A stretch of DNA of 64,000 nucleotides, from NCBI GenBank assembly GCA_049860595.1, contig CP187551.1. One strand, written 5' to 3'. Shown piece by piece: positions 1,836 through 48,015 of the stretch; the stretch's first letter is position 1, and each line of letters begins with the position of its first letter. The notes beneath the pieces were generated by a model. It saw only the letters and a program-made list of their open reading frames with translations. It ran no database searches and had not been told where the DNA came from. Made by a program: the position numbers and the translations under genes. Origin of the DNA: Methanocaldococcus sp. 16A. GTDB taxonomy: Archaea; AGJL01; Methanococci; Methanococcales; Methanocaldococcaceae.

Positions 1836-2279
1836 ATGATTTTTGCAGTTAGAACTATGGTTGGTCAGGAAAAGAATATAGCTGGATTGATGGCTAGTAG
1901 AGTTGAAAAGGAACAATTAGATGTTTACTCAATATTAGCCTCAGAGTCCTTGAAAGGATATGTTTTAGTTGAGGCGGAGACAAAAGGAGATGTCGAGGAA
2001 TTAATAAAAGGGATGCCAAGAGTTAGGGGAATCGTTCCTGGAACAGTGGCTATTGAAGAAATAGAGCCATTATTAACTCCAAAGAAAATTATTGAGAACA
2101 TTGAGAAAGGAGATGTTGTTGAAATTATTGCCGGACCGTTTAAAGGAGAGAGAGCAAAGGTTATTAGAGTTGATAAAAATAAAGAAGAGGTTACTTTGGA
2201 ACTTGAAAACGCTACAGTTCCAATACCAATAACCTTATCTGTCGAAGGTGTTAAAATAGTTTCAAAGCATAAAGATTAA
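1836..2279 (+). CDS. spt5: Transcription elongation factor Spt5/NusG
   Basis: NGN domain (GQEK, KGYVLVE) and KOW motif (GDVVEIIAGPFKG). Confidence 0.97.
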   Translation: MIFAVRTMVGQEKNIAGLMASRVEKEQLDVYSILASESLKGYVLVEAETKGDVEELIKGMPRVRGIVPGTVAIEEIEPLLTPKKIIENIEKGDVVEIIAGPFKGERAKVIRVDKNKEEVTLELENATVPIPITLSVEGVKIVSKHKD

Positions 2280-2376
2280 ATAGGACTTCCGCAGTTTATA
2301 TGTCAATTAAGGCAATTATGATGCCTATAAGACATCAATAATCATTATAAAATTTTATTCCCGCTAAAGTTCTATT
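2279..2376. repeat. Family A nested palindromic element
   Basis: AATAGGACTTCCGCAG...CCCGCTAAAGTTCTATT; inner GATGCC/GACATC hairpin. Confidence 0.8.
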
Positions 2377-2450
2377 AAATTTATATGGAAGGCATAACTT
2401 TATATACTTAATGCATTAATTTTATCTACACATTAATTCTTTTAATGAAC

Positions 2451-2547
2451 ATAGAACTTTCGTAAGAATAAATCTTTATAAGAAAAAATGATGCCTTTAG
2501 GTATCCAACTACCTTAATTAAAATAAACAAAACGCGGAAGGCCTATT
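2451..2547. repeat. Family A element, degenerate, opposite orientation
   Basis: ATAGAACTTTCG...GATGCCTTTAGGTATC...CGCGGAAGGCCTATT. Confidence 0.7.
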
Positions 2548-2571
2548 CCAATATACTTTGAGGTGAATATT

Positions 2572-3057
2572 ATGGCTAAAGAGGTTGTTGAGGTATTAGT
2601 TACTGGAGGTAGAGCAACAGCAGGACCACCATTAGGACCAGCAATTGGGCCTTTAGGAGTTAACGTCATGCAGGTTGTTAAAGAGATTAATGAAAAAACA
2701 AAAGACTATGAAGGAATGCAAGTCCCAGTTAAAGTTATAGTTGATACAGAAACAAGAAAGTTTGAAATTGAAGTAGGAATTCCTCCAACAACTGCTTTAA
2801 TTAAAAAAGAGTTAGGAATTGAAACAGCCGCTCACGAACCAAGACACGAAGTTGTTGGAAACTTAACATTAGAGCAAGTTATTAAAATAGCCAAGATGAA
2901 AATGGATTCAATGCTCTCCTATACTTTAAAAAACGCTGTAAAAGAAGTTTTAGGAACCTGTGGTTCAATGGGAGTAACAGTTGAAGGAAAAGACCCTAAA
3001 GAAGTACAAAAAGAAATTGATGCCGGAGTTTATGATGAATACTTCAAAGAAGAATAA
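2572..3057 (+). CDS. rpl11: 50S ribosomal protein L11
   Basis: [18 protein letters not shown] motif; start placed at the ATG after GAGGTGA. Confidence 0.97.
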
Positions 3058-3096
3058 ATTATTTCTTTTTTTATATTTTTTAACGATATAATTTTC

Positions 3097-3218
3097 AATA
3101 AGACTTTTGCAGGAATATTATTAAATATATAAAGTACAAAAGTCCTATTTTAAGTATTTTTTACATTTATTCATTAATTAATGTGCATTATTATATTTAT
3201 TCCTGAGAAAGTCTTATT
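3097..3218. repeat. Family A element with internal deletion (3097-3149) plus a lone arm (3196-3218)
   Basis: AATAAGACTTTTGCAGGAAT...TACAAAAGTCCTATT; TTTATTCCTGAGAAAGTCTTATT. Confidence 0.65.
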
Positions 3219-3267
3219 AAATATAAAATAAGATTATTATCTATTTAAATCTTTTTTGAGGGGGAGT

Positions 3268-3978
3268 ATGAGAATTGAATTAGAACTACAAACAGATAAT
3301 TTTACAGTAATTCCTTACAATCATCAGTATTATTTGGCATCCGCCATATATAGCAAAATACACTCTGCAAGTCCAGAATATGCTGAAAGATTACATAGCT
3401 ATCAAAAATTTAAGTTCTTTACCTTCTCTTTATTGCAGATAAAAAAGAGAGTTATTAGAAAGGAAGGGATTGAAACAATAGATGGAAAAGCTTATCTTTA
3501 TATTTCTTCTCCAAAAACTGAATTTATAAAGAATTTTGTTGAAGGGCTTTTAGAAGATGGAAAACTAAGAGTAGGAAATATTGAGTTTTATATAAATAAG
3601 GCTAAAATACTCCCAATACCAAAAAAATTTAATATATTAAAAACACTCTCTCCAATATATTTAAAAACAAAGATTAATGTAGATGGTAAATTAAAAGACT
3701 ATGATTTACTTCCAAATAATTCTAAATTTTATGAAAATTTAAAAAACAATCTAAAAAAGAAATATGAAGCATTTTATAATGAGAAATGTGATATGGACTT
3801 TGAATTCGAAATTTTAAAATATAAACCTAAGAGGATGAGAATAAAGAATATTTACTGTAGATGTTCTGAAATGGTGTTTAAGGTTTGGGGTGATTACGAA
3901 CTAATAAAATTTGGTTATGAGTGTGGCTTTGGAGAGAAGAATAGTATGGGTTTTGGAATGGTTATGAATATTGATTAA
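3268..3978 (+). CDS. cas6: CRISPR-associated endoribonuclease Cas6
   Basis: C-terminal G-rich loop GFGEKNSMGFG; FKFFTFS; ATG after GAGGGG. Confidence 0.95.
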   Translation: MRIELELQTDNFTVIPYNHQYYLASAIYSKIHSASPEYAERLHSYQKFKFFTFSLLQIKKRVIRKEGIETIDGKAYLYISSPKTEFIKNFVEGLLEDGKLRVGNIEFYINKAKILPIPKKFNILKTLSPIYLKTKINVDGKLKDYDLLPNNSKFYENLKNNLKKKYEAFYNEKCDMDFEFEILKYKPKRMRIKNIYCRCSEMVFKVWGDYELIKFGYECGFGEKNSMGFGMVMNID

Positions 3979-4100
3979 ATTTCTATTTTTTAATTTTTAA
4001 ATTACTTTACTTTTTTAAATTAAAATTTTATCGATAAATTTATATATGAATTTAGAAGAGGGTACATTATTGTAGCTATTAGATTTTTACTGGTGAAGGT

Positions 4101-5675
4101 ATGCCAGATATGACACTTGATAAATTCATAAACCAAAGTAATGTAGAAAATAAAAGTTATAAAAAATCTAAAAATTTTATATTTAAAATTCCAATTTACC
4201 ATGATGTGTGGATGGATAACGCATTAGAAAACTTTTATCGAATTTTAAAAAAGATAGATATTGAAGACTTTAATGTCACACTAACCGGTGATAAACTAAT
4301 CTTTGAATTTGATGATTTTGAAGAGTTTAAAAATGCATTAATTCAGCAAATAAAGCATAAATATAAAAATATGATTGTAATGGGGGTAGATAAAAAAACA
4401 GGAGTTACAAAAGAGATTAAAAAGGACTTTATTTTACTCCAAGAAGGTAAAAAAGAGGGAGGTACTGTAAAATTAAAAGAAGAGATATTTGACTGGAATA
4501 AACTGCCTAAAATACTGAACGAACTTAATGAAAACAAAAAAGGAAACAAAATCTGTATAATGTGCGGAGGCAGATACAAAAAAAGCTATACATTAAAACA
4601 GGCAATTTATCCATTTGTAACGAAGAATAAAAGCTTAAGTGGAATTAGAACAATTAAATCACTTCCAGATTATCACAAAAATCTATGTTTAATGTGCTAT
4701 TTGTTGGGGGTTTTGGAATGGACTGACGAGGGACTTTTATATTATACATTAGGAAATGAAAAAACATTTTTATTCCTTCCAATATTTGATGACTTAATTA
4801 AACTTAACACATTCAAAGAAGATACATTGCATGCTGGAATCTTAAATTCTTCGGGAGAGTCAGCAAGATATGGAAACTTAGCTAAAAATCCAAATTCTGA
4901 TGAAATTGAAAAAACTTCTGGAGAATATAGCACTTTATTGGCATTTTATGAAAAGTTTATTGTGAATGTGAAAGAGAGTGAGGTATTATGCAATAAGTGG
5001 GGAGTGTTGCATATTCCAATAAAAAGCAAAGTCAAAAATGTCAAGTTTGAGACAATAAATGTTGATAAGGGAATGTTGGAGGTGATAGGGAAGTTAGTAG
5101 AGGAAAATTACTTAATTTATGATGAATTTGTTAAAGGAATATTTTTTAAAAAGTATAATAACAAAAAATTCACAACTGATTGGGAATTTACTCATGAAAT
5201 TAGAGAGAATTTATCAAAATCTCTATTGATAAATGATTTTAGAACTTTCTCAAAGCAGTTAATGCCAAGAAAAGGAGGTTTAGTTATCTTATCATCAGAT
5301 GCTTATCAAATTTTGGATGAACTCATCTATCTCTGGAGGTTGGTAAATATGGGAATTCCTAAGGAGAAATTGGATATAATAAAAAGTGTTGGTAATATTA
5401 TTGCAAAAATATCCATTGGAAATTCCTCTTTATTGTACAAACTTGATAAAGTTAGAACTATTGAAGAGTTTTGGAGTGTTTTAAGGGAAATATCAAGAAA
5501 AATGGCTGGAATGGAAAAAGAAGAACTTAGAGAGATAAAGCCAACTGCAATAGATGAACTTGTAATTATGGTCAAAGAACATGAAAAAATCTGGAAGGAG
5601 ATTAGGGATTTGTTAGTTATCTACTCATCCATGTATCTTGCCATTAAAAAATTAAAAAAGGAAGGGGGGAATTAA
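4101..5675 (+). CDS. cas8b: Type I-B large subunit Cas8 (Cas8b/Cst1-like)
   Basis: Located between cas6 and cas7; two CxxC pairs (CIMC, CLMC); helical C-terminal domain. Confidence 0.8.
   Translation: MPDMTLDKFINQSNVENKSYKKSKNFIFKIPIYHDVWMDNALENFYRILKKIDIEDFNVTLTGDKLIFEFDDFEEFKNALIQQIKHKYKNMIVMGVDKKTGVTKEIKKDFILLQEGKKEGGTVKLKEEIFDWNKLPKILNELNENKKGNKICIMCGGRYKKSYTLKQAIYPFVTKNKSLSGIRTIKSLPDYHKNLCLMCYLLGVLEWTDEGLLYYTLGNEKTFLFLPIFDDLIKLNTFKEDTLHAGILNSSGESARYGNLAKNPNSDEIEKTSGEYSTLLAFYEKFIVNVKESEVLCNKWGVLHIPIKSKVKNVKFETINVDKGMLEVIGKLVEENYLIYDEFVKGIFFKKYNNKKFTTDWEFTHEIRENLSKSLLINDFRTFSKQLMPRKGGLVILSSDAYQILDELIYLWRLVNMGIPKEKLDIIKSVGNIIAKISIGNSSLLYKLDKVRTIEEFWSVLREISRKMAGMEKEELREIKPTAIDELVIMVKEHEKIWKEIRDLLVIYSSMYLAIKKLKKEGGN
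5349..5675 (+). CDS. cas11: Putative internally translated small subunit Cas11 (108 aa)
   Basis: In-frame ATG at 5349 preceded by GGAGGT; covers the helical C-terminal domain of Cas8. Confidence 0.65.
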   Translation: MGIPKEKLDIIKSVGNIIAKISIGNSSLLYKLDKVRTIEEFWSVLREISRKMAGMEKEELREIKPTAIDELVIMVKEHEKIWKEIRDLLVIYSSMYLAIKKLKKEGGN

Positions 5676-6581
5676 ATGAAGGGCATAGAGATAGTTTGGT
5701 TATCAAAAACTGATTTAACAAACCTAAACTCTGGTGAAGGGGAGAGTAATTTTATTGATATTAAGAAATTTAAAAAAAATGGAATTGAATATCCTTATGT
5801 TTCAGGGCAGGCAATGAGGTATTATATAAAAGAGGCGATTAGAAGGAATTTAGATGAGAATGAATTTATGTGCGTCCCAGATGATAAAGGAGAGACGTGT
5901 GGAAATATAGAAAACTGTATTGGATGTGACCTCTTTGGATTCATGAAGCCAGAAAAAGATGTTGGAGCAAGAACAAGAGTCTCACCAGTAAAGGTATCAC
6001 CAGCAATAGGGTTATTACCGTTTGATGAGAACTCAACAGTTGATTTTTTAACAAGAAGATATAGAGGGGGAGAAAAATCAGAGGGAGATATAGTAAATGT
6101 TGAGATTGGTGTCAATATCTACAAGGTAGGGGTAGCAATTGATGTTAAAAGAGTTGGAGGAGAGGAAAAGATTGAAGATGGAACAGTTAAGATTGATTAC
6201 CTCATAGATGATAAAGAACGTAAAAATAGGATTTCAAAGGTTATAGAATCTTTAAGATACTTGTCAGATTACTCAAAGCAGGCGAGATTATTAACTGATT
6301 TCACACCAGACTTTATAATAATTGCTTTCCAAGATATATATTCCCACAGATTGCAAAAGGCAATAGATTTGAAAGATAATGTAATAAATGTTGAGTTATT
6401 AAAGGTAATCCTTAGAGATGTTTCAGAATATTCACCAAAAATATTTGTTGGGCTTGTTCCAAACTTCTTTGAGAATGAAGAAGAAATTAAAAGGCTATTT
6501 GAGGAAATGGACATAGAAGTTAAAGCACCTCATGAGGCAATAAAAGATGCATTGAGTTACTTAGAAGAAATTAACTTATAA
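5676..6581 (+). CDS. cas7: Cas7 (Cst2/DevR family)
   Basis: [24 protein letters not shown] and [10 protein letters not shown] motifs. Confidence 0.92.
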
Positions 6582-6593
6582 ATTGGTGTTTCT

Positions 6594-7370
6594 ATGTGGG
6601 GGTTGAAGTTTAGAGTTGAAGGAATTTACTTTGTAAGTTTTAGGAAGCCAGTTACAACATCTTTATCTTTAACTTATAAACTACCTCCTTTTACGGCAAT
6701 TAGAGGGATAATAGGAAATGCCTTAGGATTGCCAAGGGATTCATTTGAGATTCAAAATTGGTTTAAGATTGGAATGAGGGTTGATGATAAAATAGAGATT
6801 GGTAGAGAAATGGCTAAATTCTTAAAGATGATTTCAAGAAAATCGTGTTATAGATGTGAGAGTTGTGGATTTGAGAAAATATCTGACTCAAAGCCAAAAA
6901 AATGTCCAAACTGTGGAAAAGAGAATATTGTAAAAGTGGAGAAGGTGATTTATGAAAGAACCTTTCCATCTTCACCAATGCATAGAGAATTTTTAATAAT
7001 GCCAAAATATTGGATTTATCTTGTGGGAGAAGAGAAGAAAATAAAAAAGATTTATAATGCCTTAAATAATCCAGAGAGACCTTTATATCTTGGAACTTCT
7101 GATGATTTGGTAGATGTTGAGATATTTGAGCCAGTTAGAGTAAAAGAAGTTGAAGAAAATGAGATAAATAGTATCTTAGACGGAATTTATGAAAATTGCA
7201 TCCTTGAAAAACTACCATACAAGTTTATCCCAATAAAAGACAAGAAAGGTAACTTAAAAGAGGTTTATTCTGAATATAAACTAGTTTCTATTCCAACGAA
7301 GTTTCCATATTTGTCTGAAAAATCTTTAAAAGTTTGGGACTTTGGAGATGAATTTATCAGGGTGTTTTAA
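6594..7370 (+). CDS. cas5: Cas5 with an inserted C4 zinc ribbon
   Basis: SFRKP...TYKLPPFTAIRGIIGNALG; LYLGTSDD; insert CESC-x14-CPNC. Confidence 0.9.
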   Translation: MWGLKFRVEGIYFVSFRKPVTTSLSLTYKLPPFTAIRGIIGNALGLPRDSFEIQNWFKIGMRVDDKIEIGREMAKFLKMISRKSCYRCESCGFEKISDSKPKKCPNCGKENIVKVEKVIYERTFPSSPMHREFLIMPKYWIYLVGEEKKIKKIYNALNNPERPLYLGTSDDLVDVEIFEPVRVKEVEENEINSILDGIYENCILEKLPYKFIPIKDKKGNLKEVYSEYKLVSIPTKFPYLSEKSLKVWDFGDEFIRVF

Positions 7371-9745
7371 TGATTATTGCCAAAAGGGAGGGTGAGGCAT
7401 TTCAGACATTGAAAGGGCATACCTACGATGCATTAAAAATCTATAAAGAATATTTGGAAAGAAATTTTCATGTAGTTGATGATTTCTGCAATAGATGGGA
7501 AATTCCAACTGAAAAATTTATAAAAAATACTTTTTTCACCATTTATTTGCATGATATTGGTAAAATAACAAAAGAATTCCAAAATAATATACAAAACGGA
7601 AAAAGAAGCAATAAACATCCTCATCCACTTTATGCCCTTCCAATTATCAACAGTATTGAGTTTGATTATCTTCTCGATATCCCAATTGAGATTTTTGCTA
7701 TTTTATCCCACCATACACAACTATATGATAACTTATATGCTGATTATCAACAATATAAAAAAGGGACTTTTTTAATAGAAGAAATCAAAGATTTTATAAA
7801 AAATTCCAAAGATGCTTATAAATCTCTTGGATTTTCAGAGTTTTTTGAATTTGGAGATTTATTCAAAGATTTAGAAAAATTCAATATCCCAGAAGAAGTT
7901 AAACCTTTAGAATTGCACAAATTGAGAAGACCTCTTTGGAAAAATACAAAAAAATATATTGATTCACTAAGTTTCAACGAAAAGATTAAAATAAAATCAA
8001 TATTCTCATTCATGTTTTCTATCCTTCAATTGTGTGATGATTTTGCAAGTTTAAACTTTCGTGAATATGCGAAGGATAAGGAAGGAACTTTTGATGATGT
8101 TTTGGAAAATCCAGAAGTTTATATCCCAACAGTAAATATTGAGAATCCAATATCATTTATATTAAAAGATTATGAGCCATACAAATTCCAAAAAGAACTT
8201 TACCATTCAAAAAATAAGTTTGTGATGTTGTTTGCTCCTTGTGGGAGAGGTAAGACAGAAGGAGCATTACTTTGGGCTTTGAATGCATTAAAAAACTTCA
8301 AAAGAAATAAAATTATTTTTGCGATGCCTACGCAAGTAACAAGTAATGCAATGTACGATAGATTAACAAAAATTTTTGGAGAAGAAAATGTTGGTTTATT
8401 TCATGGAAAGAGCTTTATAAAATTGAAGGATTCAAAAGAGATAGATGATGAAGAGAATTTAGAAGAAATTAAAGATGAGAATTTTAAAGGAAATGTATTT
8501 TTTAAGCCAATTACGATAACTACTATTGACCATGTTATATATTCTTTTGTTCATGGCTTTTCTCAGGCAGATTTTGCATTGGGGAATATTCAAAATTCAG
8601 TTATAGTTTTTGATGAAGTTCATTACTACGAAAAATATACCTTAGAGCATCTACTGACACTTTTTGATATTTTAAAGAGAATGGATATCCCACATTTACT
8701 TATGAGTGGGACACTACCAAGCTTTTTAATTAACTGTCTTGAAGGTTATGAGATTGTAGTTGATGAAGAAGGATTAGATTACAAACCTTTTAAACTTGAA
8801 TGTTCAGAAAATCATTTAATTTGGAAAGAAAATGGTGAATGGAAATTTAATGAAGACATAATCAATGAAATAATAGAGAATTATAAAAAAGGTCTATCTC
8901 AGGCGATTATCTTAAATACTGTTGAAAGAGCGAAGGAATTTTATAAGGCAATAAGGGACAAAGTTCCAGCAATTCTTTATCATTCTCAATTTACCTATAA
9001 AGATAGAGTTAAAAAGGAAGATGAGATTTTTAATTTGGAAGAGATGAGAAAAAGTCTAAATAAACCTTATGTTGTTGTTGCTACTCAAGTAATTGAAATC
9101 TCTCTCGATATGTCTGTTGATGTTATGTATTCTGAGTTATCTCCACCAGATGCACTTGGACAGAGGGCTGGAAGACTTCATAGAAAAGGAAAGGATTGGA
9201 AAGAGAATGGAAAAGAATTTAAACTAAAAATATTCTTGCCATATAAACACTTGCCATATAGCAAAGAACTAATAGAAAGAACAATTGACTATATAAAATT
9301 TTATGAAAAACCTCTAAATTATAGAGATATCAAAGATTTTGTTGATAATGTTTATAAAGATTATAATTTAACCATTCCTAGTAATTTAAAGACATTTTTT
9401 GATGAGGCAATATTATTTGGACGGCATTGGACAGATATAGCAACGATAGATGAAGAAGGAAAATTCTTTAAAGTTAGAGATGATAAGTTTATGAAGATTG
9501 AAGTAGTTCCAAAAGTTTATTTTGATGAATTGGGAGAAGATGCATTGAGAGCAGAGTATATGGCAAAAATTCCAGCCTATTTAATTTTAAATGAAATAAA
9601 AAATGAGGATGGATTGATACACTTTTACCATTATGAAAAAAGAGTTGGTAGAAGAACCAGAAGATATTTAATTTGTTCATTTAAATATACCTATGAAATA
9701 GGATTTGACTACAAAGAGGAAGAGGAGTTTGAAGACATCTTATAG
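7370..9745 (+). CDS. cas3: Cas3 HD nuclease-helicase
   Basis: LHDIGK, HH, APCGRGKT, DEVH, QRAGRLHR. Confidence 0.96.
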   Translation: MIIAKREGEAFQTLKGHTYDALKIYKEYLERNFHVVDDFCNRWEIPTEKFIKNTFFTIYLHDIGKITKEFQNNIQNGKRSNKHPHPLYALPIINSIEFDYLLDIPIEIFAILSHHTQLYDNLYADYQQYKKGTFLIEEIKDFIKNSKDAYKSLGFSEFFEFGDLFKDLEKFNIPEEVKPLELHKLRRPLWKNTKKYIDSLSFNEKIKIKSIFSFMFSILQLCDDFASLNFREYAKDKEGTFDDVLENPEVYIPTVNIENPISFILKDYEPYKFQKELYHSKNKFVMLFAPCGRGKTEGALLWALNALKNFKRNKIIFAMPTQVTSNAMYDRLTKIFGEENVGLFHGKSFIKLKDSKEIDDEENLEEIKDENFKGNVFFKPITITTIDHVIYSFVHGFSQADFALGNIQNSVIVFDEVHYYEKYTLEHLLTLFDILKRMDIPHLLMSGTLPSFLINCLEGYEIVVDEEGLDYKPFKLECSENHLIWKENGEWKFNEDIINEIIENYKKGLSQAIILNTVERAKEFYKAIRDKVPAILYHSQFTYKDRVKKEDEIFNLEEMRKSLNKPYVVVATQVIEISLDMSVDVMYSELSPPDALGQRAGRLHRKGKDWKENGKEFKLKIFLPYKHLPYSKELIERTIDYIKFYEKPLNYRDIKDFVDNVYKDYNLTIPSNLKTFFDEAILFGRHWTDIATIDEEGKFFKVRDDKFMKIEVVPKVYFDELGEDALRAEYMAKIPAYLILNEIKNEDGLIHFYHYEKRVGRRTRRYLICSFKYTYEIGFDYKEEEEFEDIL

Positions 9746-11246
<1,501 letters not shown>

Positions 11247-11251: not shown

Positions 11252-11348
11252 AATAGAGCTTTCACAGTTTATATGTTAAATTTGGAACTTTGACACCTTT
11301 AGGTATTTATATTTCAATTAAAAAATTTATTCTCGTGAAAGTCCTATT
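11252..11348. repeat. Family A element between convergent cas1 and cas2
   Basis: AATAGAGCTTTCACAG...GACACCTTTAGGT...CGTGAAAGTCCTATT. Confidence 0.8.
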
Positions 11349-11640: not shown

Positions 11641-11660
11641 TAAACTGCAAAAATCCTATT
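11641..11660. repeat. Lone arm of a family A element
   Basis: TAAACTGCAAAAATCCTATT vs consensus TAAACTGCGAAAGTCCTATT. Confidence 0.5.
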
Positions 11661-11709: not shown

Positions 11710-14700
11710 ATTTCCATACCGAAACGGTCTGATTTTAATTAACACACAAACATTCTTCACCATTGCGGCATTAGTATTTCCATACCGTATCGGTCTGATT
11801 TTAATAATTAAATATTGCCATCAAATATATTGTTATGACCATAAACAGGTTTCCATACCGTATCGGTCTGATTTTAATTGATTAATAGATTACAAAAACA
11901 GTATTTTAAGAATGTTTCCATACCGTATCGGTCTGATTTTAATGAAAATTCTGCAGAATTATAATTCTCTAAAAAAGCTTTTATGTTTCCATACCGTATC
12001 GGTCTGATTTTAATAAAGTAAATATTCCCATTTTTTATTCCCACTATCTTGTTTCCATACCGTATCGGTCTGATTTTAATTGACTGGGATAGTATATATA
12101 AATTACTCACTGAAAAGTTTCCATACCGTATCGGTCTGATTTTAATTTTATATTCCAGCTAAAAAAGCTGTATTCTATGCAGTGTTTCCATACCGTATCG
12201 GTCTGATTTTAATGAACTAAAATTATATTTATTTTTGAAACATTGTAGGTTTCCATACCGTATCGGTCTGATTTTAATCTTTTAGCAAAAAAATATGGCT
12301 TAATTTAAGATGGGTTTCCATACCGTATCGGTCTGATTTTAATCTTTTAGCAAAAAAATATGGCTTAATTTAAGATGGGTTTCCATACCGTATCGGTCTG
12401 ATTTTAATTTGCAAACCATTGCAAATTTAAAAAACAAATAAAATAAGTTTCCATACCGTATCGGTCTGATTTTAATATTCTATCAATACACAAATAGAAT
12501 TCTGCATAACTATTGTTTCCATACCGTATCGGTCTGATTTTAATAGTGTTAAATCCATATTCTCTTTCACAATATTTCCTAAGTTTCCATACCGTATCGG
12601 TCTGATTTTAATATTCTATCAATACACAAATAGAATTCTGCATAACTATTGTTTCCATACCGTATCGGTCTGATTTTAATATTCTATCAATACACAAATA
12701 GAATTCTGCATAACTATTGTTTCCATACCGTATCGGTCTGATTTTAATATTCTATCAATACACAAATAGAATTCTGCATAACTATTGTTTCCATACCGTA
12801 TCGGTCTGATTTTAATTTCGGATATTCTTGAAGCGTTGGGAGCTTGCGTTATAGTTTCCATACCGTATCGGTCTGATTTTAATTTATGTTATACATGGTC
12901 AATGCAGCTAAAGAAGCAGCGTTTCCATACCGTATCGGTCTGATTTTAATATAAACGACACGAACGTTACATTAATCTACGCATTGTTTCCATACCGTAT
13001 CGGTCTGATTTTAATTGTACAATTCTGTGTTTTTCTTACACAATGAGATAACGTTTCCATACCGTATCGGTCTGATTTTAATAATTACTAAATAGATTAA
13101 AAATGAAATGTTTATTAGTGTTTCCATACCGTATCGGTCTGATTTTAATAATATGTTGAGAGATATCTATAGATATTGTGAGATAAGTTTCCATACCGTA
13201 TCGGTCTGATTTTAATTCCAATAGACGACAACGACAAGAAAAACCAAGTATAGTTTCCATACCGTATCGGTCTGATTTTAATATAGAAAATTATTCAATT
13301 GCTGACCAAAAAGCAACCATCGTTTCCATACCGTATCGGTCTGATTTTAATCAAAAAGTTTTGATGAGTTAAAAAAATCATTTGAACGTTTCCATACCGT
13401 ATCGGTCTGATTTTAATGATGAAAAAGGAAATTTCTTAAAAACTTCTGGAAAAATCAGTTTCCATACCGTATCGGTCTGATTTTAATGAGCTAATCCAAT
13501 TATATGCATAATCCCCCCAAAGGTTTCCATACCGTATCGGTCTGATTTTAATTCATATATTTTTATATTTTAAATTACTCATCATATATGTTTCCATACC
13601 GTATCGGTCTGATTTTAATTAAAAAGTGTAGGTGTCCCTAATACAGCTGCAGAAGTTATAGGGTTTCCATACCGTATCGGTCTGATTTTAATCTATAGAT
13701 TCGTAGATGAAGGACCAGTAGGATATATAGAAGTTTCCATACCGTATCGGTCTGATTTTAATTGAAAAGAAGATGGAGAGAAATTTATGGTGATTAATTA
13801 GTTTCCATACCGTATCGGTCTGATTTTAATGAAATCTCCAATGCCCATAGATAGAAAATCTATGTTTCCATACCGTATCGGTCTGATTTTAATTAAAGGA
13901 GCTAATGGCAAAAAGTGGCTAATATACAAAAATGAGTTTCCATACCGTATCGGTCTGATTTTAATGGACATAGAGGGTAATGACATCATCATCAAGTGTA
14001 GTGTTTCCATACCGTATCGGTCTGATTTTAATTGGTTGCTGTATTACGATTCACAATGCTTTGAGATTTTGTTTCCATACCGTATCGGTCTGATTTTAAT
14101 AATAGCGCCCAATTCTCCCGCCCAATCCATCCCAAAATCGTTTCCATACCGTATCGGTCTGATTTTAATTAATTTTTATAGGACCGTAGCAATGATTCTT
14201 TTTTTGTGGTTTCCATACCGTATCGGTCTGATTTTAATTCTTGATAATATACTTATTATGCTCATCTTCAAACTCATAGTTTCCATACCGTATCGGTCTG
14301 ATTTTAATATTTTGAAATTCAGGTATTACAGTGTAAAGTATGTAGTTTCCATACCGTATCGGTCTGATTTTAATTTAAGAATAGCATTTTCAATCTTCTT
14401 TTTTTCTTCGTTTCCATACCGTATCGGTCTGATTTTAATATTCTTAGAAGAGTTTAAAAGAGATGGAGTAAAATATGTTGTTTCCATACCGTATCGGTCT
14501 GATTTTAATAATATTATCAGGGCATGGATGGGTATGTAATAGAATGTGTTTCCATACCGTATCGGTCTGATTTTAATCCTTACAGCATTTCCAGAGATAA
14601 TTGGAACATCTACGTTTCCATACCGTATCGGTCTGATTTTAATTGTGATTTTTACAGCAGAATGTAAAATGCAATTTCAGTTTCCATACCGTATCGGTCT

Positions 14701-14770
14701 GATTTTAATTAATTATCTTAAATAGCAATGTCAATAAATAGTTTCCATACCGTATCGGTCTGATTTTAAT
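11710..14770 (-). CRISPR. CRISPR array, 46 repeats and 45 spacers by manual count; 30-nt repeat ATTAAAATCAGACCGATACGGTATGGAAAC (minus strand)
   Basis: Exact repeats separated by 31-43 nt spacers; degenerate repeats at 11710 and 11776 mark the trailer; repeat ends in GAAAC on the minus strand. Confidence 0.98.
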
Positions 14771-15200: not shown

Positions 15201-15208
15201 TGAAAACT

Positions 15209-15321
15209 TATAGTTGTGAGCAAAAGTATATAAGTTGAATAAGGAACTAAAGAATACCTTCCAAAAGGAAGGTATTCATATTTTCCTTTTTAAAGTTTAT
15301 TTTATTTTGCTCACAACTATA
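15209..15321. repeat. Family B nested palindromic element
   Basis: Perfect 17-bp arms TATAGTTGTGAGCAAAA/TTTTGCTCACAACTATA; inner hairpin GAATACCTTCC-AAAA-GGAAGGTATTC. Confidence 0.9.
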
Positions 15322-15341
15322 ATAACAATCATGGTGAAAAA

Positions 15342-18683: not shown

Positions 18684-18837
18684 AGGTAGTTGCCCATTAA
18701 ATTTTATAAAAATTTTTATTTTTCACATAAAGTTCTATTCTATTAGTTAAACTATCATAAATCCAAAATCTAAACCGAAAATTTTAAATACCATATATTT
18801 TTAATAAAAATCCTTGTAAAATTTCTGAGGTGGTATT

Positions 18838-19041
18838 ATGGCTGAGCTTCCAGTTGCACCATTTGAAAGAATCTTGAAAAAAGCTGGAGCAGAGAGAGTT
18901 AGCAGAGCAGCTGCAGAATACTTAGCAGAAGCAGTTGAAGAAATCGCATTAGAAATTGCTAAGGAAGCTGTTGAGTTAGCTAAACATGCTAAAAGAAAAA
19001 CTGTAAAAGTTGAAGACATAAAGTTAGCTTTAAAGCAGTAA
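18838..19041 (+). CDS. Archaeal histone (HMf family)
   Basis: [10 protein letters not shown]...RVS...[12 protein letters not shown]; promoter-like ACCGAAAATTTTAAATA upstream. Confidence 0.96.
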
Positions 19042-19161
19042 ATTGCTAAACCTCTAATTTTTTATTCTTTTGTTTATTTTATGCAAAAAAGATTATTTTA
19101 AATTGGTTTTAATTTAGTTTTAGGTTTTTATTGTTATTTTAGATAGATTGCTACAAATATC

Positions 19162-19257
19162 TATAGGACTCTCGCAGAAATAAATTTTTTATTGAACATG
19201 GACACCTTTAAGGTGTCTAAATTCCAAATTAATATGTAAAGCTGTGAAAGTCCTATA
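19162..19257. repeat. Family A element directly upstream of tRNA-Arg
   Basis: TATAGGACTCTCGCAG...GACACCTT-T-AAGGTGTC...CTGTGAAAGTCCTATA. Confidence 0.85.
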
Positions 19258-19262: not shown

Positions 19263-19337
19263 GCCCCCGTAGCTCAGCCAGGATAGAGCGTTCGGCTTCG
19301 GACCGAAAGGTCGGGGGTTCAAATCCCCCCGGGGGCG
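19263..19337 (+). tRNA. tRNA-Arg(TCG)
   Basis: Cloverleaf; anticodon arm TTCGG-CT TCG GA-CCGAA; GGTTCAAATCC; CCA not encoded. Confidence 0.93.
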
Positions 19338-20151: not shown

Positions 20152-20228
20152 GCCTCGGTGGCTCAGCCTGGTAGAGCGCCTGACTTGTAATCAGGTGGTC
20201 GGGGGTTCAAATCCCCCCCGGGGCTCCA
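20152..20228 (+). tRNA. tRNA-Thr(TGT)
   Basis: CCTGA-CT TGT AA-TCAGG; encoded CCA. Confidence 0.95.
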
Positions 20229-20243
20229 TTCATTCCTTTGAGT

Positions 20244-20321: not shown

Positions 20322-20328
20322 CTTGTGT

Positions 20329-30521: not shown

Positions 30522-30574
30522 TTTATCCCCCTAAGAAACTCTGCTTTATGGTGAAGAGCAATATACATCTATAA

Positions 30575-31036
30575 CTACTCATAAAAAAATTTTCTTAGGC
30601 ATATTAAGTTTGTAAATTTCCAACCTCTGGATTTGTAAAATTCAAGTGCTTTTTTGTTATCTTTATCTGCAAGTAAAGACAATCTTAACAAACCATTTTC
30701 TTTACAATATCTTTCTGCCTCAGATAAAAGTTTGCTTCCAATGCCTTTTCCTCTAAACTTCTCATCAACCACCAAATCTTCCAAAATACCCACTTTTCCC
30801 CCTTCAGCTGTAGAAATTAAAGTTTGGATAGAACACATTCCAACTACTTTACCATTATATCTTGCAACAAAAATTACAGAATTTTTGCTGTTTAATAATA
30901 ATTCTAAGCCTTTTCTTTGTTTATCATAATTTGAGATGAAGTCCTTTTCTATTTCAAAAAGTTGCTTTAATAAATTAATCATATCATCAATGTCTTCTTT
31001 TTTTGCAGTGTCTATTGTTATCATTATTTTCACCAA
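30575..31036 (-). CDS. GNAT family N-acetyltransferase
   Basis: LVVDEKFRGKGIGSKL, NKKALEFY..GW. Confidence 0.9.
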   Translation of the reverse strand: MVKIMITIDTAKKEDIDDMINLLKQLFEIEKDFISNYDKQRKGLELLLNSKNSVIFVARYNGKVVGMCSIQTLISTAEGGKVGILEDLVVDEKFRGKGIGSKLLSEAERYCKENGLLRLSLLADKDNKKALEFYKSRGWKFTNLICLRKFFYE

Positions 31037-31120
31037 AAAATTAAATTTATAAAATTTATTATTTAAATTAAAAAAACATCAACTATGAGTATTTATTCTC
31101 AATCTATTTTATTCACTAAA

Positions 31121-34932: not shown

Positions 34933-36912
34933 GTGGTTTTTATGGAATTTGAAAGATATATTAAAGAAAAGTTTCCATATCCAAAAATTAGAGGGCCTCA
35001 AAAAAAAATGATGCTAAAAATTTACGAATGTATAAAAAACAGGAGAAATTTAATAGTTGAAGCTCCTACAGGTGTTGGGAAAACTCTTGGCTACCTAATT
35101 CCAACTTTATATTTTGCAGAGAAAGGAAAGAGAGTTTTAATATTAACTGAAACAATAGACCAGCAGGTTAGGATATATGAGGATTTAAGCTCTCTAAAGC
35201 ATAATTTAAAGGTTGCATTTCTTATGGGTAAAAGTAACTTTATTTGCAAGTCAAAAGGAGGGAAGGCTAATAGATTATATTGCCAATTGAATAAAAAATG
35301 CCTATATCGACCAAATAAAAGGCCAATTTGTTATTGTGGAACAAAAAAACAGCAAATAAATTTAGGGGATAGGGTTATTTACTACTGTCCATTTTGTACT
35401 TGTGATTATCAAAAGGCAAAAATTGAGAGTATCTTAGCTGATATTATTGTAATGAACAACAGCATGTTTTACTATGCAAAGGAAGATATTGAGGCAAAAA
35501 GAGATATTGACATAATTATTTGCGACGAGGCTCACAAATTAGAAAATAGTATAAGAAATGCATCAACAATAACCATTAATCCAGATTTAGCAATTAATAG
35601 ATTAAAATATATGGCTATATACTATGCACCAAATATTTTAAAAAAGAGATTGGATATTGAAGATGAGAATTTTTGGAAAATTATTGAGAAGTATTTAACA
35701 AGTAGAGGTATAGATATAGATATTTGCAAAGATACTATTATTTATACTGGAGAAGATTTAAGTTCTTGGAAATATAAAACTGAATTGGCTGTGTTAGGAG
35801 CTATTTTAGATGGTTATTATCAAATAAACAATATAAAGTACAAAATATTAAGATTTAATGAAAATGAAGAAATTAGTAATAAGGAGCTTAAATTTGAAAT
35901 TGATAATAAGGCGTTAATTGCTATAGAGCTTGATTTTATCCATAAAAAGAGATTATCTGATATGTATCTTTTAGAATTTATAGAAAATATCAAAAATTTG
36001 AGATATATTAATGAAAACTATGTAATTTATAGAAGTGGAAATTCCTTATTATGTGAGCCAGTTTTTGTTAGCTCTCATTTAAAAGAGCTTTATGATAATG
36101 CTGTAGTTATTCACTGCTCAGCAACTATTGGAAATCTAAAAATGCATGCTTTGAAGACTGGAGTTGAAAAGCCGGAGTTTTTAATTTTAGAAAGCCCATT
36201 TCCAAAAAATAGGAAGAAAATTATAGCTCTAAAAGATGGCGTTGATATGAAGTATGAAAAAAAAGATAGAGAAAAAGCAAATAAAAATTTGTTAAAAATA
36301 TTGGAAGCAATAAATGGAAATTCATTAGTTCTATTTAAAAGCTTTGAGGATTTAGATAGTTTTTACAAATTCCTAAAAAAAGAAATAACAAAAACAAATA
36401 TTAAAAATAAAAATATTCACGTGTATGAGCAGGGAATGGATGGAAAGGAAGCTAAAGAGCTAAAAGAAAGGTTTGAAAAAATTGGAGGGATTTTATTAGC
36501 AACTGGAAGATTTGCTGAGGGTGTTGATATCCCTGGGGAGGCATTGGTTGGGGTTGTTATAGATGCTTTACCTTTCCCTGTTCCTACACCTTTAATATTA
36601 AGAGAACAAAGAATATTAGAAGAGAAATTTAAAAGTAGAGGTATTAGAGATGCTCATTGGAGAGCTTTTTTAATGACATCATTTGATAGAATGGCTAGGA
36701 CTTTAGTACAAATGATTGGAAGATTAATAAGAACAGAGAATGATTATGGAGTTGTAGTTATACAAGATAAGAGGTTTGCAGATTGGGCTGGGAGAGTTAT
36801 GAAAGAAAAAGGTTATTTAAAAGATAATTATGATGTTATGAGTTTAGATATGGCTATAAAATATATTCCAAAGTTTATGAGCCAGTTTAGAATAGGACTT
36901 TCGCAGGAATGA
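34933..36912 (+). CDS. XPD/DinG family helicase
   Basis: APTGVGKT, Cys-rich segment, DEAH, EGVD, QMIGRLIR. Confidence 0.9.
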   Translation: MVFMEFERYIKEKFPYPKIRGPQKKMMLKIYECIKNRRNLIVEAPTGVGKTLGYLIPTLYFAEKGKRVLILTETIDQQVRIYEDLSSLKHNLKVAFLMGKSNFICKSKGGKANRLYCQLNKKCLYRPNKRPICYCGTKKQQINLGDRVIYYCPFCTCDYQKAKIESILADIIVMNNSMFYYAKEDIEAKRDIDIIICDEAHKLENSIRNASTITINPDLAINRLKYMAIYYAPNILKKRLDIEDENFWKIIEKYLTSRGIDIDICKDTIIYTGEDLSSWKYKTELAVLGAILDGYYQINNIKYKILRFNENEEISNKELKFEIDNKALIAIELDFIHKKRLSDMYLLEFIENIKNLRYINENYVIYRSGNSLLCEPVFVSSHLKELYDNAVVIHCSATIGNLKMHALKTGVEKPEFLILESPFPKNRKKIIALKDGVDMKYEKKDREKANKNLLKILEAINGNSLVLFKSFEDLDSFYKFLKKEITKTNIKNKNIHVYEQGMDGKEAKELKERFEKIGGILLATGRFAEGVDIPGEALVGVVIDALPFPVPTPLILREQRILEEKFKSRGIRDAHWRAFLMTSFDRMARTLVQMIGRLIRTENDYGVVVIQDKRFADWAGRVMKEKGYLKDNYDVMSLDMAIKYIPKFMSQFRIGLSQE

Positions 36913-36984
36913 ATTTTTTATTGAATATAGACACCTAAAGGTGTCAAAGTTCCTTTATTACATATAAACTGCGAAAGTCCTATT
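36891..36984. repeat. Family A element containing the helicase stop codon
   Basis: Perfect AATAGGACTTTCGCAG/CTGCGAAAGTCCTATT; inner GACACC-TAAA-GGTGTC. Confidence 0.92.
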
Positions 36985-39000: not shown

Positions 39001-39096
39001 TATAGGACTTTCGCAGGAATAAATTTTTAAAGGCATTTTTGATGCCTTTGGCATCATTTTTTCATTACTTAATATATATACTGCGAAAATTCTATA
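39001..39096. repeat. Family A element
   Basis: TATAGGACTTTCGCAG...GATGCC-TTT-GGCATC...CTGCGAAAATTCTATA. Confidence 0.88.
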
Positions 39097-39203
39097 GTTT
39101 TGTGCAAAAGTATTTATGAATTATAAGGTATTAATGAACGTCTTCCTTTGGAAGGCGTTTAAATCTTTCATATAAAGTTTGATTTATTTTGCACAAAACT
39201 ATA
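39093..39203. repeat. Family B element abutting the family A element (shared TATA)
   Basis: Perfect TATAGTTTTGTGCAAAA/TTTTGCACAAAACTATA; inner AACGTCTTCC-TTT-GGAAGGCGTT. Confidence 0.9.
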
Positions 39204-42385: not shown

Positions 42386-42420
42386 TTAATCACCTCATGT
42401 TAGATATTATATCTAAGATT

Positions 42421-42514
42421 TATAATTTTGTGCAAAATAAACTCAATTAAGGTATTTATAATGCCTTTAGGTATCAAAATATCTTTAAATTTTTATTTCT
42501 GCAAAAGTCTTATT
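42421..42514. repeat. Chimeric element: family B left arm with family A core and right arm
   Basis: TATAATTTTGTGCAAAA...ATGCCTTTAGGTAT...CTGCAAAAGTCTTATT. Confidence 0.7.
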
Positions 42515-44237: not shown

Positions 44238-44332
44238 AATAGGACTTTCGCAGTTTATATATTAAATTTAGAACTTTGACAATTTTAAGTGTCTATATTC
44301 AATAAAAAATTCATTCCTGCGAAAGTCCTATT
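44238..44332. repeat. Family A element
   Basis: Perfect AATAGGACTTTCGCAG/CTGCGAAAGTCCTATT. Confidence 0.92.
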
Positions 44333-45608: not shown

Positions 45609-45690
45609 AATAGGAGTTTCGCAGTTTATATATTAAATTGAAATTTAGACACAGTTCAATAAAAATATTTATTCCCGCGAAAGTCCTATT
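45609..45690. repeat. Family A element with a partly deleted inner hairpin
   Basis: AATAGGAGTTTCGCAG...CCGCGAAAGTCCTATT. Confidence 0.85.
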
Positions 45691-45729
45691 GAAATAAAAT
45701 AAAAAAGAAAGCAAACAATTTTTAATTTT

Positions 45730-46149
45730 TTATTGTTTTTTCTCTTGAGCTTGTTGGGCTTTCTGTATTTCTGCCTGTAACTCTTTTCTTAAAGCAGCTA
45801 TTGCTTTAGCTAATTCTTCAGCTTTCTTCATTCCTTCTTTTTCAGCTTTATCTAAATCTTCAATAGATTTTTTCAAATCTTCAATAATTTCACTAAATGA
45901 TTTTTCAACATAAATATCTGACTTAACTCCAATTAAAGCCTTATCATCAACAATTTTTGCCTTTAAAAAAACTCCTGGACCTACTGGAATTAATGTCTCT
46001 TCATCTGCTTTTATATTTTCAATTGTTTTAATTGAGTTCATTATTTCAGATTTTAATGTTCTTATTGATACTAATTCACTTTGAATCATTTGTAATTGTT
46101 GATTGTATATTTCTAAAGCCATAGCTTTTTGTCTTAAATCTTCGCTCAT
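45730..46149 (-). CDS. pfdA: Prefoldin alpha subunit
   Basis: Coiled coils flanking ETLIPVGPGVFLKAKI...YVEK hairpins. Confidence 0.92.
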   Translation of the reverse strand: MSEDLRQKAMALEIYNQQLQMIQSELVSIRTLKSEIMNSIKTIENIKADEETLIPVGPGVFLKAKIVDDKALIGVKSDIYVEKSFSEIIEDLKKSIEDLDKAEKEGMKKAEELAKAIAALRKELQAEIQKAQQAQEKKQ

Positions 46150-46233
46150 ATTTCCACCTCAATAAGCACTATAGCATAACTGATATATATCTAATGCTTT
46201 AATAAATTTATTGATAATGCTTCTATAGAGGTA

Positions 46234-46542
46234 GTGTTTATGAAACTGTTAGGTGTTATAGGCTACTTAGCCGTTTTAATTAAAGCTATATGTGAGTCCT
46301 GGATTGATGTTGTTAAAAGAAGCATAAATGGGGAAATAAAGCCCCAAGTTATAGAAATAGAGTCTATTATCAACAACCCTACTGGTTTAGTTCTGTTATC
46401 ATGGTCTATAACAGCTACTCCAGGAACTTTAGTTATTGATTTAATTCCAGAAGAGAGAAAATTAAAAGTAGCCACAATAAGCCCAAGAAGTAGAGAAGAC
46501 ATTGTTCCATTTGAGCCATACATTAAAAAAATTTTTGATTAA
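46234..46542 (+). CDS. MnhE-like subunit (probably energy-converting hydrogenase associated)
   Basis: [12 protein letters not shown] motif. Confidence 0.8.
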
Positions 46543-46543
46543 A

Positions 46544-47848
46544 TTATTCTTTCTCTAAAACTTTTATATGTCCGTTATCTAATTTAACTTTCATTATACT
46601 TTCATTATTATATATTGTTAAAAATGCTAATATTGCTGCTTTTGTTCCATATCTATTTGAACCAGCTAAAATATAGATGTTATTATTATTGTAAGGGTTT
46701 TTTATTTTTTGTATAACACCTATATTATTTCCAGGATAATTATCAGTTATATTTATCCTTAGTAAAGCTTTATTTTCAAGTTCTTTAACAAATTTATTAA
46801 CTTTAGGACCTCCAATGAGAATTATATCTTTATTGATATTTAATGGGTCAATATCAATTATATCTAATGAGTTAATGTAAATCTTTTCATGATTTTCTAA
46901 CTCTTTTCCTTTATAATAAACATGAACTGTATTGTTTATTTTTATGGCATAAAATCCTTCGCCTAAATATAAAACGGTTTTGTTTTCAATATTAAAAGTT
47001 TTAGTTTCTTTTTTTATTACTTTAAATAAAACATAATCTTTGTAATCTTTTTCAAGTATTATAGTACAATTAAACAAGTGTATTTCATTTCCTAAATCAT
47101 TTATATTTTTATATACAAGCTCTATTCTATCAGCACTGAGATCTTTAACTATAAAATTCTTATCTAAGGGGAAATCCTTATCCTTTTTAATTTCTATTGT
47201 TGAATATACATTAAAGGTAAAATAATAGCTTTTACCTTTTTTTGTGCAATTCTTATATATAATCCCTAACTGTTCTCCTTCTACATAATAAAACTGCCCT
47301 TTATTTAATTTAAAATACTCCATAATAGGCTTTCCATTTTTGTATATATCAACAACTATAGTATTTAAATCAGGAGATAAAAGCTTAACAGCCACTTTAT
47401 ATCTACCATATTCAAATGATTCATTTGTTGTTATTTCCTTTCCATCTTTTTCTTTTAATATTATACAATCTGACGTAATATCTTCAACTATGTAGCTTTT
47501 GTTGAATAAACTTATTTCTTTTCCCTTTTCAAGGTTTAAATATTCAATATACTCAATATCTTTGTATTTTATCCCATTATTATCTCTGATAAATTTTATA
47601 TTGAGTTTTTTACTATTATCCTCAATCTCAAGCTCATCAGTAGCTGGAATATATATAATATCGTCAATAATAACTGTTATATTACTCCCATTAACTTTTA
47701 TTTCTCTTGAAGAATATAAGTTATCCATCAAAACTTTGGCATTTTCATAATCTACTGTGCTTTTATTTACAAAGATTACTGGGTCTATAGGCAAAGCATA
47801 GCTAACACTTATAAATAGTAATATAAATAATAAAAGGAGTTTTTTCAT
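46544..47848 (-). CDS. Secreted S-layer-family protein
   Basis: Signal peptide; ILIGGPKVN and ILAGSNRYGT motifs. Confidence 0.75.
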   Translation of the reverse strand: MKKLLLLFILLFISVSYALPIDPVIFVNKSTVDYENAKVLMDNLYSSREIKVNGSNITVIIDDIIYIPATDELEIEDNSKKLNIKFIRDNNGIKYKDIEYIEYLNLEKGKEISLFNKSYIVEDITSDCIILKEKDGKEITTNESFEYGRYKVAVKLLSPDLNTIVVDIYKNGKPIMEYFKLNKGQFYYVEGEQLGIIYKNCTKKGKSYYFTFNVYSTIEIKKDKDFPLDKNFIVKDLSADRIELVYKNINDLGNEIHLFNCTIILEKDYKDYVLFKVIKKETKTFNIENKTVLYLGEGFYAIKINNTVHVYYKGKELENHEKIYINSLDIIDIDPLNINKDIILIGGPKVNKFVKELENKALLRINITDNYPGNNIGVIQKIKNPYNNNNIYILAGSNRYGTKAAILAFLTIYNNESIMKVKLDNGHIKVLEKE

Positions 47849-47917
47849 TAATTTCCCCTCCTTAAACTTTTATAGAATTGATTAAGTTATGAGTGATTAT
47901 TATAAAATGTCTTTATT

Positions 47918-48015
47918 AATATGACTTTCACAGGAATAAATATTAATAAGGCCTATTTGATGCTATTGGCATCAATGTTCTCCTTACTCAATATATAAAG
48001 TGCGAAAGTCCTATT
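47918..48015. repeat. Family A element in the divergent intergenic region upstream of hisC
   Basis: AATATGACTTTCACAG...GATGCT-ATT-GGCATC...GTGCGAAAGTCCTATT. Confidence 0.82.

Follow-up and report, generated by a model that had tools for sequence, protein, structure and literature searches.

Positions of copies in the window and layout of family A

The stretch of Methanocaldococcus sp. 16A DNA analyzed here (64,000 nucleotides, hereafter the window) corresponds to positions 672001–736000 of the 1.58-Mb main contig (C1) of the genome designated G000 (about 30% G+C). The window contains a clustered regularly interspaced short palindromic repeat (CRISPR)-Cas locus at 3256–11243, encoding Cas6, DevR/Csa2 (Cas7-type), Cas5, Cas3, Cas4 and Cas1, and a CRISPR array at 11710–14770, in the repeats of which Rfam CRISPR-DR13 was matched 46 times. 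The tRNA gene at 19263–19337 precedes a group of six further tRNA genes with a 5S rRNA gene (20152–20811), and an island of 6.9 kb (24185–31120) encodes a type I restriction-modification system (HsdR, HsdS and HsdM), a HepT-like ribonuclease and a GNAT acetyltransferase. Dispersed through this region is a family of palindromic repeats of about 100 nt, here named family A, which is the subject of this report.

The arm sequence of family A, AATAGGACTTTCGCAG, matched the window 25 times when up to 3 mismatches were allowed, compared with a mean of 0.34 and a maximum of 3 matches in 100 shuffled sequences, and paired arm matches delimited elements of 82–103 nt. A profile made from 71 paired copies and a covariance model made from 11 window copies identified 11 near-full copies in the window in addition to short forms, and five copies, folded as DNA, formed nested hairpins whose z-scores lay between −3.9 and −7.6 relative to dinucleotide shuffles. 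These results confirmed the dispersed family of nested palindromes that had been proposed in a preliminary description of this DNA. The twelve full or near-full copies listed there were reduced to 11, since the one at 3097 proved to be a short form overlapped by a second partial copy. The start of another was corrected from 24182 to 24185, and the copy at 45609 was indeed present but lacked the centre hairpin. A 3′ partial copy at 42444–42514 and a lone arm at 11645–11660 were found in addition to this corrected list. The copies in the window are as follows.

2279–2376, plus strand: near-full copy of 98 nt with a GATGCC-type centre, between an Spt5/NusG-like gene and an L11 gene; the TAA stop of the upstream gene overlaps the first base of the copy
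2451–2547, minus strand: near-full copy of 97 nt with degenerate arms, its TTTATATA end toward the L11 gene
3097–3218, no strand assigned: composite of a 53-nt short form (3097–3149) overlapped by a second partial copy (3134–3218)
11252–11348, plus strand: near-full copy of 97 nt with a GACACC-type centre, directly after cas1
11645–11660, minus strand: lone arm, adjoining the end of the CRISPR array
19162–19257, minus strand: near-full copy of 96 nt that has T..A termini; 5 nt separate its TTTATATA end from the downstream tRNA gene (19263–19337)
22683–22776, plus strand: near-full copy of 94 nt
24185–24287, minus strand: near-full copy of 103 nt with arms TTTTGCA/TGCAAAA, at the left edge of the 6.9-kb G000-only island
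36891–36984, minus strand: near-full copy of 94 nt with perfect arms; the upstream helicase-like open reading frame (ORF) extends 19 coding bases into the copy
39001–39096, minus strand: near-full copy of 96 nt with T..A termini and a GATGCC-type centre
42444–42514, plus strand: partial copy, covering profile positions 26–94
44238–44332, plus strand: near-full copy of 95 nt with perfect arms and a GACA-type centre
45609–45690, plus strand: copy of 82 nt without the centre hairpin
47918–48015, minus strand: near-full copy of 98 nt with a GATGC-type centre

The copy at 11252–11348 and the lone arm at 11645–11660 both lie between cas1 and the CRISPR array. As described previously, family A has asymmetric flanks inside its arms, TTTATATA on one side and GGAATAAAT on the opposite side, and a centre that occurs in two versions, GACACC/GGTGTC or GATGCC/GGCATC. 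The 16-nt arms pair with each other in 90.0% of 1839 cells, compared with 32–46% when the partner column is slid by 1–3 positions. Across G000, 304 arm matches were detected, every one of them on the main contig. The profile recognized 161 family A loci, of which 117 were near-full, and the covariance model gave a similar picture. Copies range from 75 to 119 nt, which is too short for a transposase gene. ORFs of at least 100 aa make up 87.6% of the contig, yet they contained the midpoints of only 2 of the 117 near-full copies. Many copies across the genome abut or overlap the stop codon of a neighbouring gene, as at window position 2277–2279. In agreement with the earlier statement that the window carries no transposase gene, no transposase family was matched by any of the 41 ORFs of 100 aa or more that lie between positions 1 and 50315. 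At the Rfam gathering thresholds, the 55 matches in the window corresponded to tRNAs, 5S rRNA and CRISPR repeats, and none was located at a family A copy.

Distribution of family A and fate of individual copies

A covariance model search was performed on 17 genomes of the same genus and 14 genomes of the neighbouring family, with both strands counted and up to 135 candidates scored per genome. Family A was detected in 11 of the 17 Methanocaldococcus genomes and in none of the 14 genomes of the neighbouring family. Among the candidates scored, G000 gave 127 hits, G011 108, G010 82, G015 79 and G001 62; these numbers fell to 19 in G008, 12 in G007 and 2–5 each in G006, G016, G014 and G004, and the six other genomes of the genus gave none. 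Among the matches listed from a collection of species genomes, many were in Methanocaldococcus sp. 28A and one full copy was in a metagenome-assembled genome of the Methanococci; the same matches included scattered single arms in unrelated bacteria. A virus collection yielded four single arm matches, one of which was inspected and is GC-rich; the covariance model matched none of them.

The window was mapped onto five genomes of the genus, with flank identities of about 95% for G011, about 90% for G015, and 84–87% for G010, G001 and G006. Inspection of the junctions showed that, for most comparable copies in the window, the site was empty in at least one of these relatives. The site of the copy at 22683 was cleanly empty, reading exactly TTAG^AGTAAAAG, in G015, G010, G001 and G006, and was occupied in the opposite orientation in G011. 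The sites at 2279, 2451 and 42444 were empty in the same four genomes; in G011, the first of these held the same arms with another repeat nested inside, and the second held a 43-nt remnant. At 36891, G015 and G010 read TTTAGAAATT or TTTAAAAATT across the empty site, and the element was also missing in G001 and G011, where the right flank aligned only from position 18–21. Empty sites were likewise observed for 19162 in G011, with flanks 98.6% identical, and in G006; for 11252 in G015; and for 44238 in G001 and G006. At this last site, a deletion in G011 also removed about 22 nt of the left flank, and G015 held a copy of the other subfamily. The copy at 39001 was absent in G011, with a shorter gap in G015, and that at 45609 was absent in G010 and G006 and present in G011. 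The island at 24185–31120 was found in G000 and was absent at the same place from G011, G015, G010 and G001; parts of it occur elsewhere in G006.

Comparison of G000 with 800 kb of G011, about half of that genome, allowed 43 G000 loci to be mapped, of which 15 were occupied in the same orientation, 2 were inverted, 17 were empty and 9 were otherwise different. The preliminary description had counted missing presence/absence polymorphism at orthologous sites as evidence against its proposal, and such polymorphism was abundant. The empty orthologous sites indicate that family A moves, or at least is gained and lost as units.

Copies shared by G000 and G011 had undergone several kinds of change. 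Their divergence can exceed that of the flanks: at C1:989097, there were about 14 differences in 97 nt between flanks that were 97.8% identical, and the arms were decaying along with the rest. At C1:1085566, the interior was cleanly inverted between unchanged arms and flanks, and the copy at window position 22683 probably represents a second inversion in place. At C1:407878, 570809 and 1462823, the interior had been exchanged for that of the other subfamily while arms and flanks were kept; the same was observed at window position 47918, where the right-end variant (GTGCG) is shared with G011 but the interior of the G011 copy is of the GACACC type. Truncation by other insertions was a fourth outcome. 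The sites occupied in G011 and empty in G000 were clean, with a length surplus over the core of 3–5 nt at 10 of 13, whereas those occupied in G000 and "empty" in G011 were ragged, with surpluses of −46 to +36 and none of 14 in the 3–5-nt range. The latter often keep small remnants in G011, such as AATAT or AATAGATT. This pattern fits gains, together with excisions that leave footprints, in the transposase-bearing genome G011 and mere retention in G000, where the enzyme has been lost, a polarity that is inferred. The median identity between nearest neighbours among the copies was 84.8% in G000 and 81.1% in G011. These values are low in both genomes. There has been no recent burst of copy number, and the values are compatible with either cut-and-paste movement or an old family.

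An insertion sequence with family A ends and the probable origin of the family

A scan of G011 for inverted arms revealed six units of 1137–1139 bp bounded by arm-like inverted ends. Seven full copies of this insertion sequence (IS), 98.5–100% identical to one another, were present in the 800 kb of G011, and the whole genome contained nine full-length matches to its 332-aa transposase. Inverted ends were present in all six IS copies inspected. The ends are (A/T)ATAGGACTTTTGCAAGCATATTTAAATA and, opposite, (A/T)ATAGGACTTTCGCATCCACATTTAAATA; they read (A/T)ATAGGACTTT(T/C)GCA, which corresponds to arm positions 2–15 or 2–16, and their first 15 bases equal the family A arm. The 332-aa ORF matched the NCBIfam model for IS701 family transposases, NF049921, with 289.6 bits (cut-off 250), as well as Pfam DDE_Tnp_2 and DDE_Tnp_1. 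The closest named protein was an "IS701 family transposase [Methanocaldococcus sp. 28A]" with 99% identity. Three clusters from short metagenome contigs were 78–82% identical over at least 89% of the query, a fourth was 78% identical over only 37% of it, and all remaining matches were at most 40% identical. G011 also has a second, shorter group of DDE_Tnp_1 (PF01609) matches with open frames of 184–234 aa, for example at 1013788–1014303.

Other candidate partners were considered in G000, which contains no match to the 332-aa protein and no DDE_Tnp_1 match. When a gene-bearing copy was sought as inverted arms 160–6000 nt apart, the sole single-ORF case (C1:1008371–1009751) was a housekeeping gene between two partial copies, which we take from its translation to be histidyl-tRNA synthetase. 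The multi-copy IS of G000, with seven ORFs for a 212-aa DDE_Tnp_IS240 protein and presumably of the IS6 family, was rejected because its ends (GAGACTGTCAAGATAAAG) are unrelated. One of its copies, at C1:211659–212297, sits inside a family A arm and shows an apparent 8-nt duplication, GGACTTCT. TnpB (PF07282) was found in 12 of the 17 genomes, and its distribution did not track that of family A; we regard the adjacency of a G000 TnpB gene to a copy near C1:452248 as chance.

Flanking sequences were compared for 105 copies, with ATAGG...CCTAT taken as the element proper. The 3-mers on the two sides were identical in 34 copies (8.9 expected) and the 4-mers in a further 18 (4.3 expected), numbers that no shuffle reached. 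In all 34 cases, the outer bases of the 3-mer were complementary (AAT, TAA, TTA, AGT, ATT, ACT, TCA or TGA). One IS copy had non-complementary outer bases, G..T, which are the exact ends of a TTGG direct repeat; this 4-mer (CCAA on the other strand) occurs once at the empty G000 site, confirming a 4-nt repeat. Among the stop codons that copies abut, some TAA and TGA stops would be the duplicated TNA target, and about seven genes end at a TAG inside the arm (AATAGG).

On these grounds, family A is probably an orphaned transposable element of the miniature inverted-repeat type (MITE), its arms being terminal inverted repeats recognized by an IS701-family DDE transposase. The MITE-like nature and the trans-acting protein suggested in the preliminary description are thus backed by site polymorphism and by a candidate mobilizer with the same 15-nt ends. 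Judging from the sequences, it is likely that the G011-type transposase, and not another enzyme, moved the small elements, and the movement would have been mostly cut-and-paste. In the mechanism we propose, the autonomous partner would be the 1137–1139-bp IS encoding the 332-aa transposase, which survives in G011 and as fragments in G008 and would have been lost from G000, leaving the small copies there as orphans. The transposase would bind the 15–16-nt arms, and the element ATAGG...CCTAT would insert into short AT-rich targets with complementary outer bases (TNA, ANT, TTAA or ATAT). Insertion would duplicate 3–4 bases and thereby make the outermost pair appear to covary. After insertion, copies would decay, be deleted with remnants left behind, flip through their own inverted arms or exchange interiors with other copies.

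Several observations weigh against this assignment. Roughly half of the copies are not bordered by an exact repeat of 3 or 4 nt, and the length surplus was 0 at window position 19162 and at G011 168106, and 2 at window position 22683. Two sites, 36891 and G011 40806, have an outer base that is the complement of the other end rather than the base predicted from the empty site. Direct repeats of 3–4 nt were present in only three of the six IS copies with inspected flanks (TTGG, AATT and GAA); members of the IS701 family typically duplicate about 4 bp (4–5 bp) of the target, as given in ISfinder. Of the 17 genomes searched, G011 and G008 alone had the transposase and the IS-specific 28-nt ends, in G008 as fragments. 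G000, G010, G015 and G001, with 62–127 model hits, are without both, and G000 retains only a 47-nt IS remnant with 89% identity (C1:196989–197035). Mobilization in these copy-rich genomes must therefore have been in the past or the work of another enzyme. Family A and the IS share only the terminal 15 nt, so the small elements are not simple deletion derivatives of the IS. Lastly, G011 shows no burst of near-identical small copies, though its IS copies are almost identical. Considering the non-exact repeats, the odd surpluses, the mismatched outer bases and the genomes without transposase, we are less confident of this particular mobilizer than of family A being a MITE.

IS701 family members are 1.4–1.5 kb long. 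The G011 element resembles them in passing NF049921, in its DDE domain and inverted ends, and in 4-nt direct repeats at some copies (CCAA/TTGG, AATT), but is shorter, at 1.14 kb; in addition, the close relatives (78–99%) of its transposase are limited to the Methanocaldococcus protein and a few short metagenome contigs. Prokaryotic pairs of MITE and IS, such as Sulfolobus SM elements, RUP/IS630-Spn1 and MITEPsy1/ISPsy2, are comparable to family A in being small, non-coding and multi-copy, with IS-matching ends, site polymorphism and, around part of its copies, short direct repeats like their target duplications. Family A differs from them in that its proposed partner belongs to the IS701 family and is absent from most of the genomes that bear it, and in having an interior that bears no relation to the IS and folds into a hairpin of its own. 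Passages of PMC2229807 give a general description of MITEs paired with IS.

The MITE reading would explain an abundant class of Methanocaldococcus repeats as orphans of an IS701-family IS that survives in few lineages. G000, without the transposase, and G011, with it, would form a natural pair for following how the MITEs of a hyperthermophile are gained, lost and inverted and how they exchange interiors.

Apparent covariation, alternative readings and other repeats

The preliminary description had attributed paired base changes in family A to compensatory covariation. When 116 copies were aligned without reference to structure, arm pairing was evident, and double changes in the arms occupied 60 cells compared with 27.4 in shuffles, exceeding every shuffle. 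Of these 60 cells, 37 belonged to the outermost pair, for which 63 copies had A-T, 35 had T-A and 2 had C-G. Both of the common states occurred in similar proportions in the two interior subfamilies, and therefore do not represent lineages. Moreover, the coupling runs into the flanks as a direct repeat, indicating that the outermost "pair" probably represents the 3–4-base duplication of a palindromic AT-rich target rather than a stem. The arm has a single CpG, and transitions at it give the variants TTTTGCA/TGCAAAA and TTTCAC/GTGAAA; single changes there numbered 10–13 per 105 copies on each side, and double changes 6 and 4, against about 2.9 and 1.7 if independent, as calculated from the counts. 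The GACACC and GATGCC centres each belong to a subfamily of its own, and the two subfamilies diverge over the entire interior. Because the MAFFT alignment of 116 copies misaligned the two subfamilies at the centre, the weak counts there were replaced by a scan of each copy for hairpins. A perfect centre stem of at least 6 bp was found in 43 of 105 copies, compared with 11 of 105 after interior shuffling, and the hairpin was kept in both subfamilies. This hairpin is the sole feature that may reflect a constraint on shape, although the contrast involves only two subfamilies. Thus, the arm pairing and the excess of double changes were confirmed, but most of the apparent covariation is probably explained by target duplication, subfamilies and CpG transitions. 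A more general caution for structure-based repeat screens is that duplication of a palindromic target can mimic compensatory covariation.

These data bear on two readings in which the fold itself matters. In one, family A would be a structured non-coding RNA, or an element of RNA processing or stability, whose hairpin is kept by compensatory evolution. The extent of arm pairing and the surplus of double-change cells speak for it, as do RNA-library contigs of a strain of the same genus that span copies. Such contigs cannot reveal the starts or ends of transcripts, and the four RNA runs examined over a 20-kb G010 stretch with four copies, of which the single raw-read run had almost no depth and the rest were contigs, gave no evidence either way. 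The concentration of double changes at the outermost pair can be accounted for by target duplication, and selection for an RNA hairpin on one strand should give an excess of G·U, whereas G·T and A·C mismatches in the arms were equal (75 each in 1680 cells), so that neither RNA strand is favoured. In addition, the copies show no fixed orientation to neighbouring genes, are missing at the corresponding sites of close relatives, decay in place and match no Rfam family. We consider this reading very improbable. The other holds that family A resembles repetitive extragenic palindromic (REP) sequences or their paired form, REPINs, that is, a single-stranded DNA hairpin moved by a Y1 (HUH) enzyme of the REP-associated tyrosine transposase (RAYT) or TnpA type, with the fold under selection. 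Like REP/REPIN-RAYT systems, family A is abundant, intergenic, about 100 nt long and hairpin-forming, with copies that fold as long nested hairpins; the retention of the centre hairpin in both subfamilies and the lack of a clean duplication at the polymorphic sites 22683 and 19162 would also suit such a mode of transfer. On the other hand, Pfam Y1_Tnp (PF01797) had no match in G000, G010 or G015, genomes rich in family A with 79–127 hits, and matched only in G011, G001 and G014. The flanking 3–4-nt direct repeats are far above chance, the arms are not themselves hairpins and have no GTAG-type head, and identical ends are found on an IS with a DDE transposase. A REPIN-like mode is very improbable. 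The idea put forward in the preliminary description, of a structured single-stranded DNA or RNA element, REPIN-like, with a fold kept by selection or conversion, finds no support in the Y1/HUH search of those three genomes, the apparent target duplications, the strand-symmetric mismatches or the decay in place, which includes the arms. Family A is probably a commonplace form of selfish DNA rather than a novel structured RNA.

A third reading, which is compatible with a MITE, is that the host uses the repeat as a cassette: TTTATATA would act as a TATA box 16 nt from one end and the T-run at the other end as a terminator, so that some copies would be portable promoters or terminators. As given in part of PMC2699501, the TATA pattern of M. 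jannaschii and M. vannielii is TWTATATA/TTTATATA, which TTTATATA equals, and the spacing from box to start is 23 ± 2 nt, which predicts a start about 7 nt outside the element. At 19162–19257, the first base of the tRNA gene comes 22 nt after the end of the box; position −1 is T, +1 is G and +2 is C, the bases described as preferred at stable-RNA promoters in the same part of PMC2699501. If this reading were true, promoters would have been replaced or provided by insertions like the one that lies 5 nt ahead of the tRNA gene at 19263. Transcription units throughout Methanocaldococcus genomes would then have been rewired by a selfish MITE, and host use would explain why some copies persist where the transposase is missing. 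A signal of host function was lacking in the orientation of copies, however: starts and stops facing the TATA end numbered 59 and 57, and those facing the other end 68 and 48. With gene starts at 59 of 116 TATA ends and 68 of 116 opposite ends, and with similar distances to the start codon, TATA ends are not enriched at gene starts. The nine bases upstream of the box (CTTTCGCAG) are unlike the preference for the transcription factor B (TFB) recognition element in the relevant portion of PMC2699501, and the searched passages of PMC2602779, a paper on in-vitro selection by TATA-binding protein and TFB, mention no repeat elements among the selected fragments. Use of family A as a host cassette is therefore unlikely.

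Palindromic repeats have been known in this genus. The MJRE1–3 repeats of M. jannaschii reportedly comprise 141 elements in three groups, 14.3 kb in total, with low mutual identity and three copies inside genes, and are said to have been given neither a transposase partner nor a target duplication. Family A resembles them in being palindromic, about 100 nt long, mostly intergenic (2 of 117 copies in ORFs) and of low mutual identity (median about 85%) within Methanocaldococcus, and differs in the transposase partner and target duplication proposed here. Family A is likely the same as the MJRE repeats, judged by the description of the latter. The MJRE paper (Suyama, Lathe and Bork, FEBS Lett 2005; 579:5281) is cited in PMC2229807 and PMC2996958. 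A literature search, whose reach did not extend to most subscription journals or to the 2007 thesis on repeats of M. jannaschii that PMC2699501 cites, returned nothing that joined Methanocaldococcus and IS701, and no text containing MJRE1, MJRE2, MJRE3 or the name of the strain.

Other repeats were observed during this analysis. A second palindromic family, which has arms resembling TATAGTGTCTTTCAAAA and TATAGTTTTGTGCAAA and carries AAGGCATTAATGAACGTCTTCC in its interior, was found at window positions 39097–39120 and 42420–42443, at locus L091 of G015 (the site of 45609) and at locus L098 of G011 (the site of 2279). It can nest inside family A copies just past the TTTATA box. Several lone family A arms on the main contig of G000, for example at 927802, 1029651, 1210044 and 1395661, have a common motif, GGTCTGAATGCA, about 30 nt further on, suggestive of a repeat family, chimeric or third, with one arm in common. 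The 115-nt segment at window positions 15208–15322 had more than 25 matches in G011, with 80–86% identity, and the 300-nt segment at 18773–19082 had several matches in each related genome, including on a small contig of G010.

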